From the NCBI GenBank assembly GCA_029012525.1, contig JAQXMG010000012.1, positions 1-38,883 of the forward strand: 38,883 bases of DNA. Direction: 5' to 3'. Below are positions 23,190 through 30,719 of this stretch, in pieces (position 1 is the stretch's first letter; each line of letters opens with the position of its first letter). This DNA is from a bacterium. GTDB taxonomy: Bacteria; Bacillota_I; Bacilli_A; RF39; UBA660. A program made the translations under genes and the position numbers. The notes beneath the pieces were generated by a model. It was not told the origin of the DNA and did no database searches. It was given only the letters and a program-made list of their open reading frames with translations.

Positions 23190-23216
23190 TGTATATGAAC
23201 GTAGAAGGTGAAACTT

Positions 23217-26150
23217 ATGTATTTAAAAGAAATAAAGATATCTGGTTTTAAATCATTTGCAGATAAAATTAATTTGAGTTTAGACGATAATATTACTTGT
23301 ATTGTTGGTCCTAATGGAAGTGGTAAAAGTAATATAATAGATGCGGTTAGGTGGGTTTTAGGAGAACAATCTATTAAAAATTTACGTGGTTCTTCTAATA
23401 TGACAGATGTTATTTTTGCGGGTAGTAAAAGTAGAAATCCTCTTAATTTAGCAAGTGTTTCTTTAGTATTTGATAATAGTGATTCTTATTTAAAAGTGCC
23501 TTATACAGAAATATGTATAACAAGAAAAGTATATCGTAGTGGTGAAAATGAATACTATATAAACAATGAAAGATGCAGATTAAAAGATATAAACGATTTA
23601 TTCTTAGATAGTGGTATGGGTAAATATGCTTTTAATATCATATCTCAAGGAGAAGTTGAAAAAGTAATAAGTGATTCACCACTTGATCGTAGGGTTATAT
23701 TTGAAGAAGCTGCAGGAGTTTTAAAATATAAAAAAAGAAAAGAAGAAGCATTAAAAAAACTTGATAGAACAAATGATAACTTAAATAGAGTATCAGATAT
23801 TATAAATGAATTAGAAAAAGAAATAACACCTCTTGAAGAACAAAGTATTAAAGCAAAAAAATATTTAGATATAAAAGAAAAATTAGAAAAAGTTGAAGTT
23901 GCCCTAATAGCAAATGATTTAGATAAACTAGATTTAGTATATAAAAAAACAGAACAAGAAATAGCTAAACTTCAACAAGAAATAATAGAATTAAATACTA
24001 AAAATACAAGTGATGATGTTTCTTTAGTTAAGAAAAAAGAAGAATTAAACAAATTAAAAGATGAAATAGTTATATTAAATAATCAATATTTATCTTTAAC
24101 CAAAGAAGAAGAAAGAATTAATGGTGAAAGAAATATTATAAAAGAAAGAAGTAAATATAGTGCAAATGATATTAAAATTCATGAAAATATTTCAAACTTA
24201 CAAGAAGAAGTTTTTTCACTTAATAATAAACTGTTATCTTTAAAAAGTGATATCGATATAACTAATGATAATTTAATTAATTTAAAAAATGATAAAGAAA
24301 AAATAAATGAAGATTTGAAAGAAAAAACAAATAATGTTAATAAATATGAAATAGAAATATATAATAAGCAAAAAGAATTAACTAACTTAGAATATAAAAT
24401 AAAATCTTTAGAAGGTTATCTTTTAGAAGGAGGAAGTACTAATTCTAATGTTAAAAGACTACTTTCTTGTAAAAGTATAAAAGGTATTCATAATACAATT
24501 GCATCTTTAGTTAACACTAATGAAGAATATGCAACAGCTTTAGATGTTGCTTTAGGAGGTTCAAAAGATTATTTAGTTGTTGATAATTCAGAAGTTGCTA
24601 AAACTGCAATTAATTATTTAAAAGAAAACAATCTAGGAAGAGTAACTTTTTATCCACTTGATGTAATTAAACCTCGTTATATAGAAGAAGAAATAGTAAG
24701 ACTTTTAAAAAAAGAAGAAGGATTTATTGATGTATTATCTAATCTTGTTTCATATGATTATAAATACTCTAATATTATAAATAATAGATTAGGTAATATC
24801 TTACTTGTAAAAACAATTGACAATGCTAATGAAATCGGAAGAAAAACCAAAAATAAATTTGTTATAGTAACACTTAGTGGTGAAATAATTAATGTTGGAG
24901 GCTCAATTACAGGTGGTTCTATAAAACAAAAAAGTATTATAAGTGAAAAATATGAATTACAAAATTTAATTAATAGAAAAGAAGATTTAGCATATGAAAT
25001 TAAAACTTTAGAAGAAAAACAAAATAGTTTAAACGAAGAAAGACAAAAAGTACAAGAAGAAGTTATTGTAAAAGAAAAGGAAAAATTACTTCTTGATGAA
25101 GAAATAAAAACTAAAGAAGAAAATTATAATAATGTTAAATTATCTCTAGATCAAAAGAATTTAGAACTTAATAATTTAAAAGATTTAGTTGAAGATAACA
25201 TAACTAAAGAAGAAGAAGAAATAACAAAAAAATATTTTGATGTATTAAACAAAAAAGAAGAACTTGGTAAAAAAGTTATGATTACAACTAAAGAAAAAGA
25301 AAAATTAGAGCAAGAAATAGAAAAAATCCAAGCTAATTTTAGATTAAGTAGTTCCAATATTCATAATAAAGAACAAGAATTAAAAGAATTAGAAATAAAA
25401 AATACCAGAAATAGTATCAGAATGGATAGTTTGCTTAATACTTTAAGTGATACTTATGAGATGACTTTTGAAAAAGCAAAAAAAGACTATATTTTAGAAG
25501 AGGATGAAGATTTAGCAAGAAAAAAGGTTAATGATTATAAAAAAATTATCAAAGATATTGGAGAAGTTAACACATCATCAATTGATGAATATGATAGAGT
25601 TAAAAAAAGATATGATTTTTTAACAAAGCAAAGTGAAGATTTAAAAGATGCAATAACAACACTTTTATCTATTATTGATGAACTTGATGAAGTAATGAAA
25701 ACTGAGTTTATTAAGACATTTAAAGAAATAGAAATAGAATTTGATAAAGTATTTAAAGATTTATTTGGTGGAGGAAGTGCCAAACTTACTCTAACTGATA
25801 AAGATAATATCTTAGAAACAGGTATTGATATAAATGTAACCCCACCTGGTAAAAAAGTATCTGCTATATCTCTTTTATCGGGAGGAGAAAAATCATTAAC
25901 TGCGATAAGTTTACTTTTTGCAATACTTAATATTAAAAGAGTACCTTTTTGTTTATTTGATGAAATTGAGGCAGCACTTGATGAAGTTAATGTTTCTAAG
26001 GTTGGAGAGTATTGTAGTAAATATGTAGGTAAAACACAACTTATTATTATTACTCATAAGAAAAAAACTATGGAATACGCTAATACTTTATATGGTATTA
26101 CAATGCAAGAATCAGGAGTTAGTAAACTTGTTAGTGTAAAGCTTGTATAA
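23217..26150 (+). CDS. smc: chromosome segregation protein SMC (short form, ~977 aa)
   Basis: The N-terminal Walker A (GPNGSGKSNIIDA), hinge (GIHNTIASLV...ALG), signature LSGGEKSL and Walker B (FCLFDEIEAALD) are all present. ATG 23217, with a GAAGGTG SD, is preferred to GTG 23208. Confidence 0.94.
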   Translation: MYLKEIKISGFKSFADKINLSLDDNITCIVGPNGSGKSNIIDAVRWVLGEQSIKNLRGSSNMTDVIFAGSKSRNPLNLASVSLVFDNSDSYLKVPYTEICITRKVYRSGENEYYINNERCRLKDINDLFLDSGMGKYAFNIISQGEVEKVISDSPLDRRVIFEEAAGVLKYKKRKEEALKKLDRTNDNLNRVSDIINELEKEITPLEEQSIKAKKYLDIKEKLEKVEVALIANDLDKLDLVYKKTEQEIAKLQQEIIELNTKNTSDDVSLVKKKEELNKLKDEIVILNNQYLSLTKEEERINGERNIIKERSKYSANDIKIHENISNLQEEVFSLNNKLLSLKSDIDITNDNLINLKNDKEKINEDLKEKTNNVNKYEIEIYNKQKELTNLEYKIKSLEGYLLEGGSTNSNVKRLLSCKSIKGIHNTIASLVNTNEEYATALDVALGGSKDYLVVDNSEVAKTAINYLKENNLGRVTFYPLDVIKPRYIEEEIVRLLKKEEGFIDVLSNLVSYDYKYSNIINNRLGNILLVKTIDNANEIGRKTKNKFVIVTLSGEIINVGGSITGGSIKQKSIISEKYELQNLINRKEDLAYEIKTLEEKQNSLNEERQKVQEEVIVKEKEKLLLDEEIKTKEENYNNVKLSLDQKNLELNNLKDLVEDNITKEEEEITKKYFDVLNKKEELGKKVMITTKEKEKLEQEIEKIQANFRLSSSNIHNKEQELKELEIKNTRNSIRMDSLLNTLSDTYEMTFEKAKKDYILEEDEDLARKKVNDYKKIIKDIGEVNTSSIDEYDRVKKRYDFLTKQSEDLKDAITTLLSIIDELDEVMKTEFIKTFKEIEIEFDKVFKDLFGGGSAKLTLTDKDNILETGIDINVTPPGKKVSAISLLSGGEKSLTAISLLFAILNIKRVPFCLFDEIEAALDEVNVSKVGEYCSKYVGKTQLIIITHKKKTMEYANTLYGITMQESGVSKLVSVKLV

Positions 26151-26173
26151 AGATGCCTTAGGGTGTCTTTTTT
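26151..26173 (+). terminator. probable terminator after smc
   Basis: Imperfect stem AGATGCC / GGTGTCT (contains G-U pairs) followed by T6. Confidence 0.5.
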
Positions 26174-26301
26174 ATGCTTTTATTTACAAAAAATAGTTAT
26201 ATTGCTATAATAAAATTATAGTTAGAGGAATGTGAAAATTATGGAAAAAGAAAAATAGAATATTACACATTAAGACCAAATTTAAAACAAGTATATGGTA
26301 A

Positions 26302-26562
26302 GAAGTATTACAGTTAGATGATGATATTGAAGGACAATTTGCCTGGGGAGATTATATCAGAGATGATGCAGAACAAGCATTAAAAGAATGGAAAATTAAA
26401 ATTTATAGTAGTGATCCAATAAAACAAGGTTCATTTGTCTCAACATCTTATATTCAAGCAGAAGAATATGCTGGTGGTAGGGGCAATAAAGTATATGAAA
26501 AAATAGTACCATTAAATGAAGTTGCCTGGATTAACGGAGACGAAGGGCAATATGCTAGAGTA
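26302..26562 (+). repeat. repeat module X, copy A
   Basis: Aligns without gaps to 29008-29268. I count about 14 mismatches by eye, mostly at third codon positions. Confidence 0.9.
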
Positions 26563-27306
26563 CAACCAAATGTATTAACTGTTACAAATTCTCAACAAGG
26601 AGTAAAATTGTCTATTGCAAAAGAACAAAATAATTCAAATATAAACAATGTTAATAATGTGAGCCAAGAAACGATAGATAAATATGAAAATGCTAAAGAA
26701 ACTATTGATAGAAAGACATTATTAGAAGTGGCTGATACACTAGAAATTTATTTTAAGAAAGGCGCTATTGTTACAATAGATGAAAATATGTCAAAAAGAG
26801 CAGGTAATAATAAAACGCCTAAAATAATAGATGTTTCTAGTTTTGACAAAACAGGAAATTTAGAAATTCTGACACGAGAAGTTAATGATTTAGCTAAGGA
26901 AATGTATTCAAATAATCAAAACAGATATACACTTGTTGAAAATATTGATACAAATACAAATTTTGAATTAGGAAATTTAGGCATAGATAAAACTTTTTCT
27001 AAAAATGTCCCATTTGAAAAATTACCAACTTATAATAAATTGAAAGAAATTGGAGAGCAAGGATTATATTATAAAACCTCTTATGATGCAAATAAAAAAG
27101 ATGGTATTAAATATCATCATTTTTTAACGCCAGTAAAAGCGATAAATACAGAAGGTAATGCGTTTATTAGAACTGTTGTTAAAGAATACACAAAGGACAT
27201 TGGACAAAATAACAAGTTTTATTATCATCAAATAGAATATTTAGATAATAGAAAAGGGATTACCGATACGAGCCATATAGGTAATCGTACTTTTGGTAAT
27301 CCCTTA

Positions 27307-27659
27307 ACTGACAACATTATAACAAATAACAACGAAAATGTCAAATTGCCTACTGCTATCAGTAATAATAATATGCAAAATAATGAAAATAATACAATAA
27401 AATCGTCTAAAACAAGTAATCCTTTAGAAATATCAAAACTAACTAAAGAAGATGCAAATACAACTCCATTACTTCCTAAAAGAACATATCAAAAAGGAGA
27501 TGGAGAAAGTAGTTTTTATAGTAATATAACTGAAAAATCAAAATTCTTAAATGAAGATTTAAGAAAAATGATGAAAGATGAAGAAAACATAGAGTATTAT
27601 AAAGAAATAACAAATAAAGATACACTAGAAAAAGCATATGAAAAACTACAAGAAGGTGG
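27307..27659 (+). repeat. repeat module Z, copy A
   Basis: Aligns without gaps to 29887-30239, roughly 90% identical or better by eye. Confidence 0.9.
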
Positions 27660-28019
27660 AATGGAAGAAACTGCGAAATGGTTTAATAAAGATGTTGAAA
27701 AAGGAAATATATCTGCAGTAGATGTAACAGAAGGCTGGATTCTTTTAAAACAATATCAAGATGCAGGAGATTATCTAAGTGCAGTAGAAGTAGCCAAAAG
27801 AATGCGTGATATTGGAACAAAAGCTGGTCAAACAGTTCAAGCATTTAATATCATGAATAGACTAACTCCTGAGGGTATGGTTTATTATGCACAAAGTGAA
27901 CTATCTGAAGCATATAACAAGATGGTAAAAAACAAAACAAAAAAATGGATAGACCAAAATATCAATAAGTTCGACTTAAATCCAAATGAAGTTAAATTTA
28001 TCATGGATACTATGAATGA

Positions 28020-28187
28020 AGTGAAAGATATGCAGAAGGTCTTTATATGGACTATCTTAAAGAACAAAATAAGCAATTAAAAAGCGTATTAGATGAAATA
28101 AGAGATAGAGCAACAATAAGATTAGCGAGATTAGAAAACGAGCCTGATTATTGTAAATGGTTTTTAGAAGGATATGACAGGGACTAA
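28020..28187 (+). pseudogene. frame-shifted linker segment joining the two long ORFs
   Basis: The alternative frame reads ...AEGLYMDYLKEQNKQLKSVLDEIRDRATIRLARLENEPDYCKWFLEGYDRD. It overlaps the end of ORF 26608-28080 and the start of ORF 28174-30291. Confidence 0.55.
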
Positions 28188-29007
28188 TACAAATGGTTGG
28201 TTAGATAAATTAACTGATAAAGAAATAAGCAAGATAAGTAGTAAAATAGTTAAGAAGATAGCAAAAAGTGGTTACTCATTTGTTGGTGAAGCAAGTGAGG
28301 AAGCATTAGCAGAAATACTAAATCCAATTATTAAAAATATGAGTTATACAGAGGGAGAAACAATTGATTGGAATGCCGTTGTAGAAAGTGCTATTGTTGG
28401 TGGATTAACTGGACAAATTCTAAATGCACCAAGCGACTTTTCATCTCAAACCATTGATAATTATAGTGGACAAATTATTTCTAATAATAATCAAATAACA
28501 AATGTCAACGAGCAATCAAATAACAATCAAATAGGTTCAAACAATCAACAAAACACAAATAACATCACTGAAAATATAACTACTGAAGTAAACAAAGTAG
28601 AAACACAAATCGCTAACAATGAAATATCACAAGAATTAGCAACAAAATCATTAAGTGAATTAAAAAATGATTTAAATATATTAAAAACATGGCAAGAATC
28701 ACAAAAAGTAAAAGAAACCAATGCTATCAATAAGGAACAAGTAAAAGTTATTGATGATTTGGTTAATAAGGTTGAAAATTTAGAAAAACAAGTAAGTGGT
28801 AAAGAAGTAAAATTACCTACTACAACTAATCAAGATAATATTAATTTGCCTATTAATACCAATCAAATTAATATACAAAATCAAGAACTAGATAATAGTT
28901 CTTTTAATTTAAAACAAAATCAACTTGAAATAATCCAAAAAAATAATCCAATGACAGATGATTACCATGTAGGAATAAGAAATGTTAATGATATTAAAAC
29001 ATGGGAA

Positions 29008-29268
29008 GAAGTATTACAGTTAGATGATGATATTGAAGGACAATTTGCATGGGGAGATTATACCAGAGATGATGCAGAACAAGCATTAAAAGAAGGGAAA
29101 ATTAAAATTTATAGTAGTAATCCAATAAAACAAGGTTCATTTGTATCAACATCTTATATTCAAGCAGAAGAATATGCTGGTGGTAGGGGTAATAAAGTAT
29201 ATGAAAAAATAGTACCATTAAACGAAGTGGCTTGGATTAATGGAGATGAGGGGCAATATGCTAAAGTG
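29008..29268 (+). repeat. repeat module X, copy B
   Basis: Partner of 26302-26562 at an offset of 2706 nt. Confidence 0.9.
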
Positions 29269-29886
29269 AATAACATTCCAATAAAACAAACAAAAGGGAA
29301 TATACCAATTAATAAGGATTTATTAAATAAATATAATAGTGTAAAAGAAATTTTTAATAATGAATCAAATAATTATGATGGAAATGTAAAAGTAAAAAAT
29401 GATATTATTGAACTTCATGGCGTAGACATTGACAATTTGTCTTCAAATGAAACAAAAAAATATGCGAAAGAAATATTCAAAAAATATAACTCTACAAATG
29501 TTTTTATAAACAATAATAATAAAATAACAGTTACATTAGGTGGTATAGAAGAAAGTATTAATAAAATATTTGCTAGTAAGACACAAAGAAATCTTTTAAA
29601 AGAACATTTATTAGTTTTTTCTGATTTAGGAGATATAATTGAACATGCTACTTTAGTCAATCAAAATAGAGAAATAAAAGATAGAAATAACATAAATTTG
29701 TGGAATTATTATTTTGATGGCTTAACTATAAACGACAAAAAATATAGTTTAGAATTTGATGTAAGGTCTATGCAAGATGGAACAAATCAATATAGAGTTC
29801 AACGATTGGAACAAAAAAAATCGATATCTCAACTCGGAGCATCAGTAAATAATACTAACACCGACCGAGCTTTCGAGACATCGATT

Positions 29887-30239
29887 ACTGACAACATTAT
29901 AGCAAATAACAACGAAAATGTCAAATTGCCTCCTGCTATTAATAATAATAATATGCAAAATAATGAAAACAATACAGTTAAATTGCCTAAAGCAAGTAAT
30001 CCTTTAGAAATATCAAAATTAAACAAAGAAGATGCAAATACGACGTCTCCTCTTCCTAAAAGAACATATCAAAAAGGAGATGGAGAAAGTAGTTTTTATA
30101 ACAATATAACTGAAAAATCAAAATTCTTAAATGAAGATTTAAGAGAAATGATGAAAGATGAAGAAACCATAAAATATTATCAGGAAATAACAAATAAAGA
30201 TACTCTAGAAAAAGCATATGAGAAACTACAAGAAGTTGG
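29887..30239 (+). repeat. repeat module Z, copy B
   Basis: Partner of 27307-27659 at an offset of 2580 nt. Confidence 0.9.
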
Positions 30240-30245
30240 GATAAA

Positions 30246-30719
30246 TTGTATGAGTATGCTTGCGTTTATTATAGACAACATGGCAATTTAGAAGTTCCAA
30301 ATTCATTTAAAACTAATAATGGCTATGAAGAAGATGAAAATGGGGAAATAAGACTTGGAGAATGGATTGTAAACCAAAGACAAAGAACATCACCAGAAAG
30401 CGAACGTGGCCAGTTATTATCAAAAATTGGGATGCGTTTTGAAGAAAAAAGAAAAAATAGAGATTTAATAACCAATATCTGTAATGAAAATAATGTAGAT
30501 ACTAAATTAAACAAAAATACTATAAATAGAATTCCATATCGAGAATTTATGTCAAAGATAGAATTTTTAAAAGAAAAAAATATTTCTTTATTAGATAAAA
30601 CAGGAAAACTTCATGAAATATTTAGTATGAGTAATACTAATATGAAACAAAAATATAATATTACTTTAGAGGAACTTATTGATAATTATTATATTAAAGG
30701 AAAGGAAAAAGGTAATTAA
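30246..30719 (+). pseudogene. helicase-associated (HA) domain fragment
   Basis: YEYACVYYRQHGNLEVPNSF...LGEWIVNQRQR...LLSKIGMRFE fits the HA repeat pattern (Y...HGh..VP...LG.W...QR...L...G..W/F). The frame opens only at 30222, exactly at the repeat Z breakpoint. The only start codon is TTG, with no SD. Confidence 0.6.

Follow-up and report, generated by a model that had tools for sequence, protein, structure and literature searches.

Between the genes smc and def of an uncultured gut bacterium of the Bacilli with low G+C content (GenBank assembly GCA_029012525.1, contig JAQXMG010000012.1; the whole stretch of 38,883 nucleotides (nt) analyzed is called the window) lies a segment, positions 26224-30242, that is very probably a decaying remnant of phage DNA. 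Within it two modules, X and Z, occur twice in the order X-Y-Z and X'-Y'-Z', with different cores, Y and Y', between them. A preliminary description of the window interpreted this pattern as a tandem module duplication that had diverged in place. Alignment to a phage contig indicates instead that the repeat is the stretch (phage positions 11515-12756) that two truncated copies of a single phage gene, lying head to tail, have in common. Copy 1 corresponds to phage 11515-13128 (X-Y-Z-tail) and copy 2 to phage 10692-12756 (N-terminal domain, linker, X', Y', Z'). The copies are different alleles, about 5-9% apart in X and Z and with cores of different subfamilies of the Pfam domain LPD3. Conserved flanks around an unrelated core therefore stem from modular recombination among phage genes and not from divergence after a duplication.

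The phage contig, L165, comes from pig gut and is 24 kb long (ENA ERZ940949, k127_21877). Its genes are, in this order, the small and large terminase subunits, portal, major head protein, a gene for a protein of 117 amino acids (aa), an SU10-adaptor-like protein, three unknowns, a gene for a polyvalent protein, tail proteins and an M23 peptidase. The polyvalent protein (P0094) is intact and has 1,732 aa. With the second long open reading frame (ORF) of the island, ORF C (28168-30291), it shares 98% of the amino acids in the N-terminal domain, 100% in the linker, 97% in X' and 100% in Y'; beyond Y' it goes on with Z, the tail and then about 690 further residues. The other homologues of ORF C are also multi-domain proteins, with LPD3, ART-PolyVal, MuF_C, LPD1, PBECR or portal fusions. 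Intact phage proteins, of about 1,700-2,400 aa and encoded in the virion structural module, have the canonical order Gly-rich N-terminal domain, Asn-rich linker, X, an optional domain, Z, tail and C-terminal module. None among 76 + 150 homologues has two X domains in one protein, and none among 80 phage loci has two X in one locus.

On the DNA level the island is collinear with the phage in four segments, all on the plus strand. Positions 26224-26304 match L165 5493-5574 (91.6%) and carry the 5' fragment of the 117-aa gene, namely its ribosome-binding site, its ATG (26241) and about 20 codons; because of a 1-nt deletion in an A-run this fragment now reads MEKEK-stop. Positions 26295-26561 match L165 11515-11781 (95.1%), and 27307-28034 match L165 12401-13128 without gap (95.3%). 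Positions 28178-30242 match L165 10692-12756, again without gap (97.9%). Within copy 2 there are only 2 mismatches in 870 nt of N-terminal domain and linker, 2 in the 618 nt of Y' and 9 in 257 nt of X', followed by 31 mismatches at 29940-30240 in Z' (91.5% identity over 351 nt). Since neither copy contains an internal stop or frameshift, and since the N-terminal-linker part and Y' are 99.7% identical to L165, the copies are young. This identity of up to 99.7% links the phage to an uncultured, RF39-like small-genome host among the gut Bacilli.

Divided into modules, copy 1 consists of X1 (26295-26562, the C-terminal 87 codons of X, with the N-terminal approximately 30 residues missing), Y (26563-27306, an LPD3 of subfamily a, an allele absent from L165), Z1 (27307-27662, an Asn-rich linker and the first approximately 90 residues of the C-terminal module, 94.3% identical to L165 12401-12751) and the tail (27663-28034), which continues the C-terminal module. 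A filler of 143 nt (28035-28177) separates it from copy 2. The latter begins with the 3' part of the Gly-rich N-terminal domain (to about 28500) and an Asn-rich/coiled-coil linker (together 28178-28920), followed by X' (28921-29268, a complete X domain of about 116 aa), Y' (29269-29886, LPD3 of subfamily b) and Z' (29887-30242).

The two X copies (26295-26561 and 29001-29267, the similarity reaching 26562 and 29268) are 95% identical and the two Z copies (27307-27606 and 29887-30186) 91% identical, both without a gap, as the preliminary description had stated. The Z similarity, followed by eye in the alignment, runs on to 27662 and 30242 and stops there because copy 2 is truncated at this point. 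The left end of X in copy 1 (26295-26304) is a deletion junction rather than the start of a domain; in copy 2 the X domain proper begins 87 nt further upstream (28921), and this part is missing from copy 1. DNA alignment found no nucleotide similarity between Y (744 nt) and Y' (618 nt). No further copies of X or Z were found in the window, and no direct repeats other than X and Z bracket the island.

When X is compared in frame (26302-26562 with 29008-29268), 10 of the 14 differences are synonymous and 4 are non-synonymous, exactly as had been noticed before, with a synonymous divergence (dS) of 0.225, a non-synonymous divergence (dN) of 0.019 and a ratio of the two (omega) of 0.086. Z differs at 32 of 354 nt, with 15 synonymous and 17 non-synonymous changes (dS 0.273, omega 0.225). 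Because omega is low, both copies diverged as functional genes. The earlier claim of purifying selection thus holds for the genes, but not for the place: the low omega is the divergence of working genes in phages, not selection at the locus in the window. That the locus has since decayed, as had also been claimed, is evident from the missing start codon of X1 and from the truncation of both copies.

A second strain of the same bacterium is represented by a metagenome scaffold, L001 (ERZ28573656), which is syntenic with the window and about 99% identical to it outside the island. Three junctions were defined in the island. Junction J1 (26295-26304), seen when both phage sequences are aligned, is a microhomology of 10 nt (ATGGGAAGAA in the phage, ATGGTAAGAA in the window). 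The phage sequence ATGGGAAGAA occurs both in the 117-aa gene and just before the codons for EVLQLDDD in X. J1 fuses the 117-aa gene out of frame to X and in phage coordinates equals a deletion of 5.9 kb; it is because of this fusion that X1 lacks a start codon and its first 30 residues. L001 has the same J1, positions 26100-26520 being 100% identical. At J3 (about 30237-30242) Z' runs into the last repeat of an HA-repeat gene whose 5' part is missing. J1 was found in two independent assemblies and J3 in four.

Junction J2, between the copies, differs in the two strains. In the window the phage match of copy 1 stops at 28034 and that of copy 2 starts at 28178, with the 143-nt filler in between, which is possibly a scrap of lost phage DNA. 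The filler contains most of a 46-aa ORF (28047-28187; MDYLKEQNKQLKSVLDEIRDRATIRLARLENEPDYCKWFLEGYDRD). In L001 the copies are joined directly and in frame at a 19-nt near-identity between the tail (phage 12917-12935) and the N-terminal domain (10466-10484). Since the window has 193 nt more of the tail but 226 nt less of the N-terminal domain, neither J2 derives from the other by deletion.

The in-frame join of L001 raises the question whether an intragenic tandem duplication could after all explain the island. Unequal crossing-over at the 19-nt near-repeat, which encodes AGQ(T/I)VQ, would have doubled about 2.5 kb of one prophage gene, and the copies would then have diverged by gene conversion or by import from other phages, including replacement of a core. 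An inter-copy junction lying exactly at the near-identity and in frame is the classic signature of such a crossover, and imports from outside clearly occur at the locus. However, J2 of the window, with its longer tail, its shorter N-terminal part and its 143-nt filler, cannot be obtained from that of L001, nor that of L001 from it. With J1 and J3 common to the strains and J2 different, there was either more sequence between the copies when the strains split or a later import. Moreover, the copies are 5-9% apart and carry different LPD3 subfamilies, both of them old phage lineages, and no homologue with two X was found. We therefore regard the duplication as unlikely. Terminal redundancy from headful packaging, retained upon linear insertion, was also considered as the source of the 1.24-kb overlap and was rejected, because the copies are 5-9% apart and differ in their cores, and because the left edge of the island is a fragment of a different phage gene.

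The site itself is empty in relatives. The closest SMC proteins are from metagenome-assembled genomes of uncultured gut Bacilli entitled "Tenericutes" or "Mycoplasma sp." (best identity 67%). In many of them def follows 60-300 nt after smc, and in none of 80 genomes was ORF C, the first long ORF of the island (ORF B, 26302-28080, without a start codon until a TTG at 26608) or the HA-repeat ORF (ORF D) found at the smc-def site. Because def directly follows smc in relatives and none of the three ORFs is present there, the region is a lineage-specific insertion. A search of the genomes of the GTDB species for the island via ORF C yielded nothing, and neither the ORF C nor the SMC sequence had an exact entry in the records consulted. 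Across the bacterial group (L082-L161) the interval between smc and def is variable and ranges from 60 nt to 4.5 kb. Two of the loci, L135 (4240-8700) and L142 (12900-17400), have in this place three tandem paralogous ORFs of about 480-500 aa with N-termini resembling VLPIEYDEKTK, which are unrelated to the island.

Although Y and Y' are not recognizable as relatives by their DNA, they contain the same kind of domain, as the preliminary description had surmised. Y' matches LPD3 (PF18798; Pfam gathering threshold 27 bits) with 37.7 bits (E = 2.7e-9) and Y, when scanned alone, with 28.9 bits (E = 1.4e-6). Eight of the nine homologues of Y carry a precomputed LPD3 annotation, so that with Y itself 9 of the 10 members of the family alignment match. 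A profile-profile comparison of Y with Y' (hhalign) was weak (E = 0.066, 17% identity). The AlphaFold models of the two have a common order of helices and secondary-structure elements and each ends in a four-stranded sheet; for both models the only structural matches were NTF2-like, weak and non-significant. Y and Y' belong to distant subfamilies, a and b, of LPD3.

The slot between X and Z is a point of domain shuffling throughout the family of phage proteins. It is empty in L031, L035, L039, L059 and L068 and is occupied by LPD3 of subfamily a in L053 (protein P0109) and in P0126, by LPD3 of subfamily b in L165, L002 and L003, by PBECR3 in L021 (85.9 bits) and by ParB_N in L027 (27.1 bits). 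In the island of the sister strain L001 (protein P0002) it holds MuF_C (55.2 bits). Further Y variants between the same flanks, which the preliminary description had proposed to look for, thus do exist, both in phages and in the sister strain; the phage gene normally has a single X-Y-Z unit.

The island of L001 is a mosaic. It agrees with the window base for base over most of its length and differs from it as follows: MuF_C stands in place of Y, Z1 has 92-95% identity, other sequence occupies the J2 region, a patch of the linker has 83-92% identity and contains a stop codon, and Y' ends and Z' begins with replaced sequence. Among the informative sites of the four Z copies of the two strains, 9 group the copies as orthologues, 8 are crossed and 1 is concerted. 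With the phage included, two or three alleles per block of Z occur in differing combinations. The history of Z is thus reticulate and the flanks have recombined, in agreement with the earlier view of them as recombination-competent. The site patterns indicate that the flanks are where alleles are exchanged and that the recombination between strains is recent.

Conserved flanks around a variable core, two strains that are 99% identical and differ in this core, and the reticulate history of Z are also what would be expected of a working cassette-switching system of the host, of the polymorphic-toxin or antigenic-variation type, in which Y cores are recombined via the X and Z flanks. A cassette-like possibility had indeed been raised for the polyvalent loci of Verrucomicrobium (Iyer et al., 2017). 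The preliminary description suggested that the locus represents or descends from such a system, but the locus shows neither an expression site accompanied by silent cassettes nor any feature of secretion or toxin immunity, and no recombinase is annotated nearby. Neither copy is complete: X1, which has no start, is preceded out of frame by a piece of a different phage gene, and copy 2 lacks the N-terminus and the C-terminal approximately 980 residues. The island yielded no secretion, toxin or immunity domains, and no recombinase is annotated within 10 kb in the sister contig L001. The two strains do not share the ORF structure, related genomes do not have the locus, and the variable element is internal to a phage virion protein. 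A working switching system is therefore highly improbable.

All data being metagenome assemblies, it must also be asked whether a short-read assembler threaded together repeats common to co-occurring phages. Two of the other assemblies break inside Z', and close relatives of the phage occur in gut samples. On the other hand, the copies have only short exact runs in common (at most 44 nt in X and 49 nt in Z), J1 and J3 recur in other assemblies, both junctions with the host lie at specific microhomologies, and the window and L001 are alike base for base over most of the island. An artefact of this kind is extremely improbable.

For the origin of the remnant of two gene copies we propose that they came from two related phage genomes in tandem, a proposal to which, taken on its own, we give an even chance. 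The two phages could have formed a double lysogen, or homologous recombination could have inserted the second into what was left of the first. The outer parts would have been lost before the strains split, as J1 and J3 suggest, and the DNA between the copies would have been deleted afterwards, independently in the two strains, leaving the two forms of J2.

Several observations weigh against a phage remnant formed in this way. In the annotation of L001 there is no integrase, no att site and no other phage gene within 10 kb, so that integration as a prophage is something we infer and not something shown. The tail of copy 1 is only about 96% identical to L165, as compared with 99.7% elsewhere, which makes L165 a relative of the donor or donors and not the donor. 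The source of the 143-nt filler was found neither in the collected loci nor in GenBank phages nor, with a degenerate DNA pattern, in IMG/VR, and a search of IMG/VR for phages that could have donated the Y and MuF_C cassettes found none. A near-consensus promoter precedes the island and its two long ORFs are open, which may allow some expression or use. Finally, all sequences are from short-read metagenome assemblies, and the exact arrangement is known from two contigs (the window and L001), two more assemblies carrying J3 on contigs that end inside Z'.

The host probably gains nothing from the locus. A more speculative idea, which we consider improbable, is that such remnants are a standing archive of effector cassettes for infecting phages. 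An infecting phage would pick up or deposit LPD3, MuF_C or another domain by homologous recombination via X and Z, whose DNA is conserved among related phages, and the replacement of Y by MuF_C between the strains together with the reticulate Z alleles would be traces of this traffic; what is seen is only the replacement of patches in the chromosomal copy. If true, the remnants would be to phages what silent cassettes are to polymorphic toxins, as was speculated for Verrucomicrobium (Iyer et al., 2017). Apart from this, the island is a worked example of how overlap between two fragments of a single mosaic phage gene can produce a switching-like pattern, and it pinpoints a slot for domain swapping in a large family of virion polyvalent proteins.

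It also draws attention to X, which is widespread and confidently folded and has neither a Pfam family nor a structural relative in the PDB. The domain (28921-29268 in copy 2), including the 29 residues upstream of the repeat, is shared by the homologues of ORF C; it is 50-83% identical over 135 phage contigs of IMG/VR and belongs to PHROG 13543, with no family in Pfam or NCBIfam. AlphaFold predicted residues 1-120 with a confidence (pLDDT) above 90. A Foldseek search of the PDB gave nothing below E = 0.14 and a PDB profile search nothing meaningful; the structural matches of X were phage polyvalent proteins only. Near-invariant motifs are NPMxDDYHxGIR, YSSxPI, FVSTS, YAGG and VAWINGDEGQ, and X also occurs fused to the C-termini of portal proteins (P0031, P0033, P0035, P0037, P0038). 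X may be an enzyme. That it is a minimal ADP-ribosyltransferase (conserved H/R, S-T-S and E) was considered but is not supported, there being no Pfam hit and no such transferase among the Foldseek matches. GenBank phages contain a single distant homologue of X, and a metagenome scan with an X motif yielded only the phage contig L005.

Z and the tail are the start of a large conserved C-terminal module present in 1,219 representative proteins, mostly of 1,500-3,000 aa, for which no matching Pfam family was found. The domain upstream of Z varies widely, X being present in just 17 of 150 Z-bearing proteins. Within Z1 a scan revealed a perfect sigma-70 consensus on the minus strand (27316-27344; TTGACA-17-TATAAT with TG), which is repeated in Z' (29896-29924, minus strand) and is also found in the phage L165 (12410-12438) and in the first copy of L001. 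The site may serve the phage as an internal antisense promoter, or it may be a side effect of encoding DNIIxNNNENVKLP.

The window has a G+C content of 26%. It follows the standard code: Table 11 already yields tightly packed ORFs, so that genetic code 4 (TGA = Trp) was rejected. Upstream of the island lies smc (23208-26150), of which only the 3' end (26100-26140) is common to relatives in this region; a terminator-like hairpin of smc (26149-26170, plus strand, from a terminator scan) is the last host sequence before the island. It is followed by the promoter-like sequence mentioned above (26183-26211, plus strand; TTTACA-17-TATAAT with a TG-extended -10, 11 of 12 consensus matches), for which alignment found no counterpart in the upstream region of phage L165. 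In ORF B an AAGGAG resembling a Shine-Dalgarno sequence (26597-26602) lies 5 nt upstream of the in-frame TTG at 26608. A start at this TTG could give a 490-aa product of Y, Z and tail, and an identical ORF is held in the protein collection as P0093.

Downstream of the island follow ORF D with its HA domain, def and ftsW. ORF D (30243-30719, plus strand; Pfam HA, PF03457) is the 3' end of an HA-repeat gene, comprising the last HA repeat and the C-terminal region. It is truncated at the 5' end; full-length relatives carry 2-3 HA repeats and stand in host-like surroundings, and none was found in viral contigs. ORF D is thus not phage-like and is the right boundary of the island. In L001 it is broken further into ORFs of 95 aa and 58 aa. 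About 6.5 kb upstream of the island, at approximately 18774-19739, the annotation of L001 points to a gene of the Abi_2 (abortive infection) family.

Recombination between cryptic prophage remnants and infecting phages is known, for example, for the lactococcal P335-type and the lambdoid phages. The island resembles such remnants in being a chromosomal phage fragment that is homologous to circulating phages and bears evidence of sequence exchange. Like other phage-derived islands it consists of phage-homologous DNA between host genes at a site that is empty in relatives. The integrase and att site of a cryptic prophage were not found within 10 kb in the annotation of L001 and may have been deleted.

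Polymorphic toxins with silent C-terminal cassettes (Rhs, CdiA, MafB) share with the island conserved flanks between which cores can be exchanged by homologous recombination. Unlike them, the window has no secretion domain, no C-terminal toxin with immunity gene, no silent array and no complete main gene; the core is internal, there are only two units, and the next genes are the HA-repeat fragment and def. From antigenic variation of the pilE/pilS or vls type the island differs in that it belongs to a phage virion protein family and that the 38.9-kb window has no further copies.

The closest relatives are the phage-type polyvalent proteins described in 2017 by Iyer, Burroughs, Anand, de Souza and Aravind in the Journal of Bacteriology (Iyer et al., 2017; PMC5512222), who also reported host-genome remnants and domain mosaicism and inferred from gene context that virions package polyvalent proteins and deliver them into the host cell. 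L165/P0094 and L053 fit this description: they are giant, multi-domain and encoded among virion and packaging genes, and LPD3, MuF_C/PBECR and ParB-like domains belong to the repertoire. Intact relatives join the N-terminal domain, X, LPD3 and the C-terminal module, and others add MuF_C, PBECR3, ParB_N, ART-PolyVal or LPD1. They thus combine several domains, whereas LPD3, one per ORF, is the sole domain of the repertoire that Pfam recognizes in the ORFs of the window. Unlike the phage proteins, the window contains two truncated overlapping fragments in a host chromosome. Copy 1 lacks the start, the N-terminal domain, the linker, the first 30 residues of X and the complete C-terminal module, and copy 2 approximately the first 230 residues and everything past Z. 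Packaging and virion genes are the neighbors in L165 and L053, but not in the window. Because its neighbors are smc, def and ftsW, the locus is a remnant and not a working member.

Two further comparisons are with systems of the same study. In jhp1044 of Helicobacter prophages, orthologous polyvalent proteins are mosaic, with domain duplications and rearrangements, and contain LPD3 in non-pylori species (PMC5512222). There the prophage genes are intact and show up to 50 combinations of domains, whereas the repeat in the window is the overlap of two gene copies in a remnant. The third context of polyvalent proteins distinguished there, remnants in host genomes, has like the island a domain syntax without phage or conjugation neighbors (PMC5512222); here, in addition, the donor lineage, the three junctions and the independent decay could be traced base by base. 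The locus fits this third context, with a mosaicism like that of jhp1044, and is thus of a kind already known (Iyer et al., 2017).

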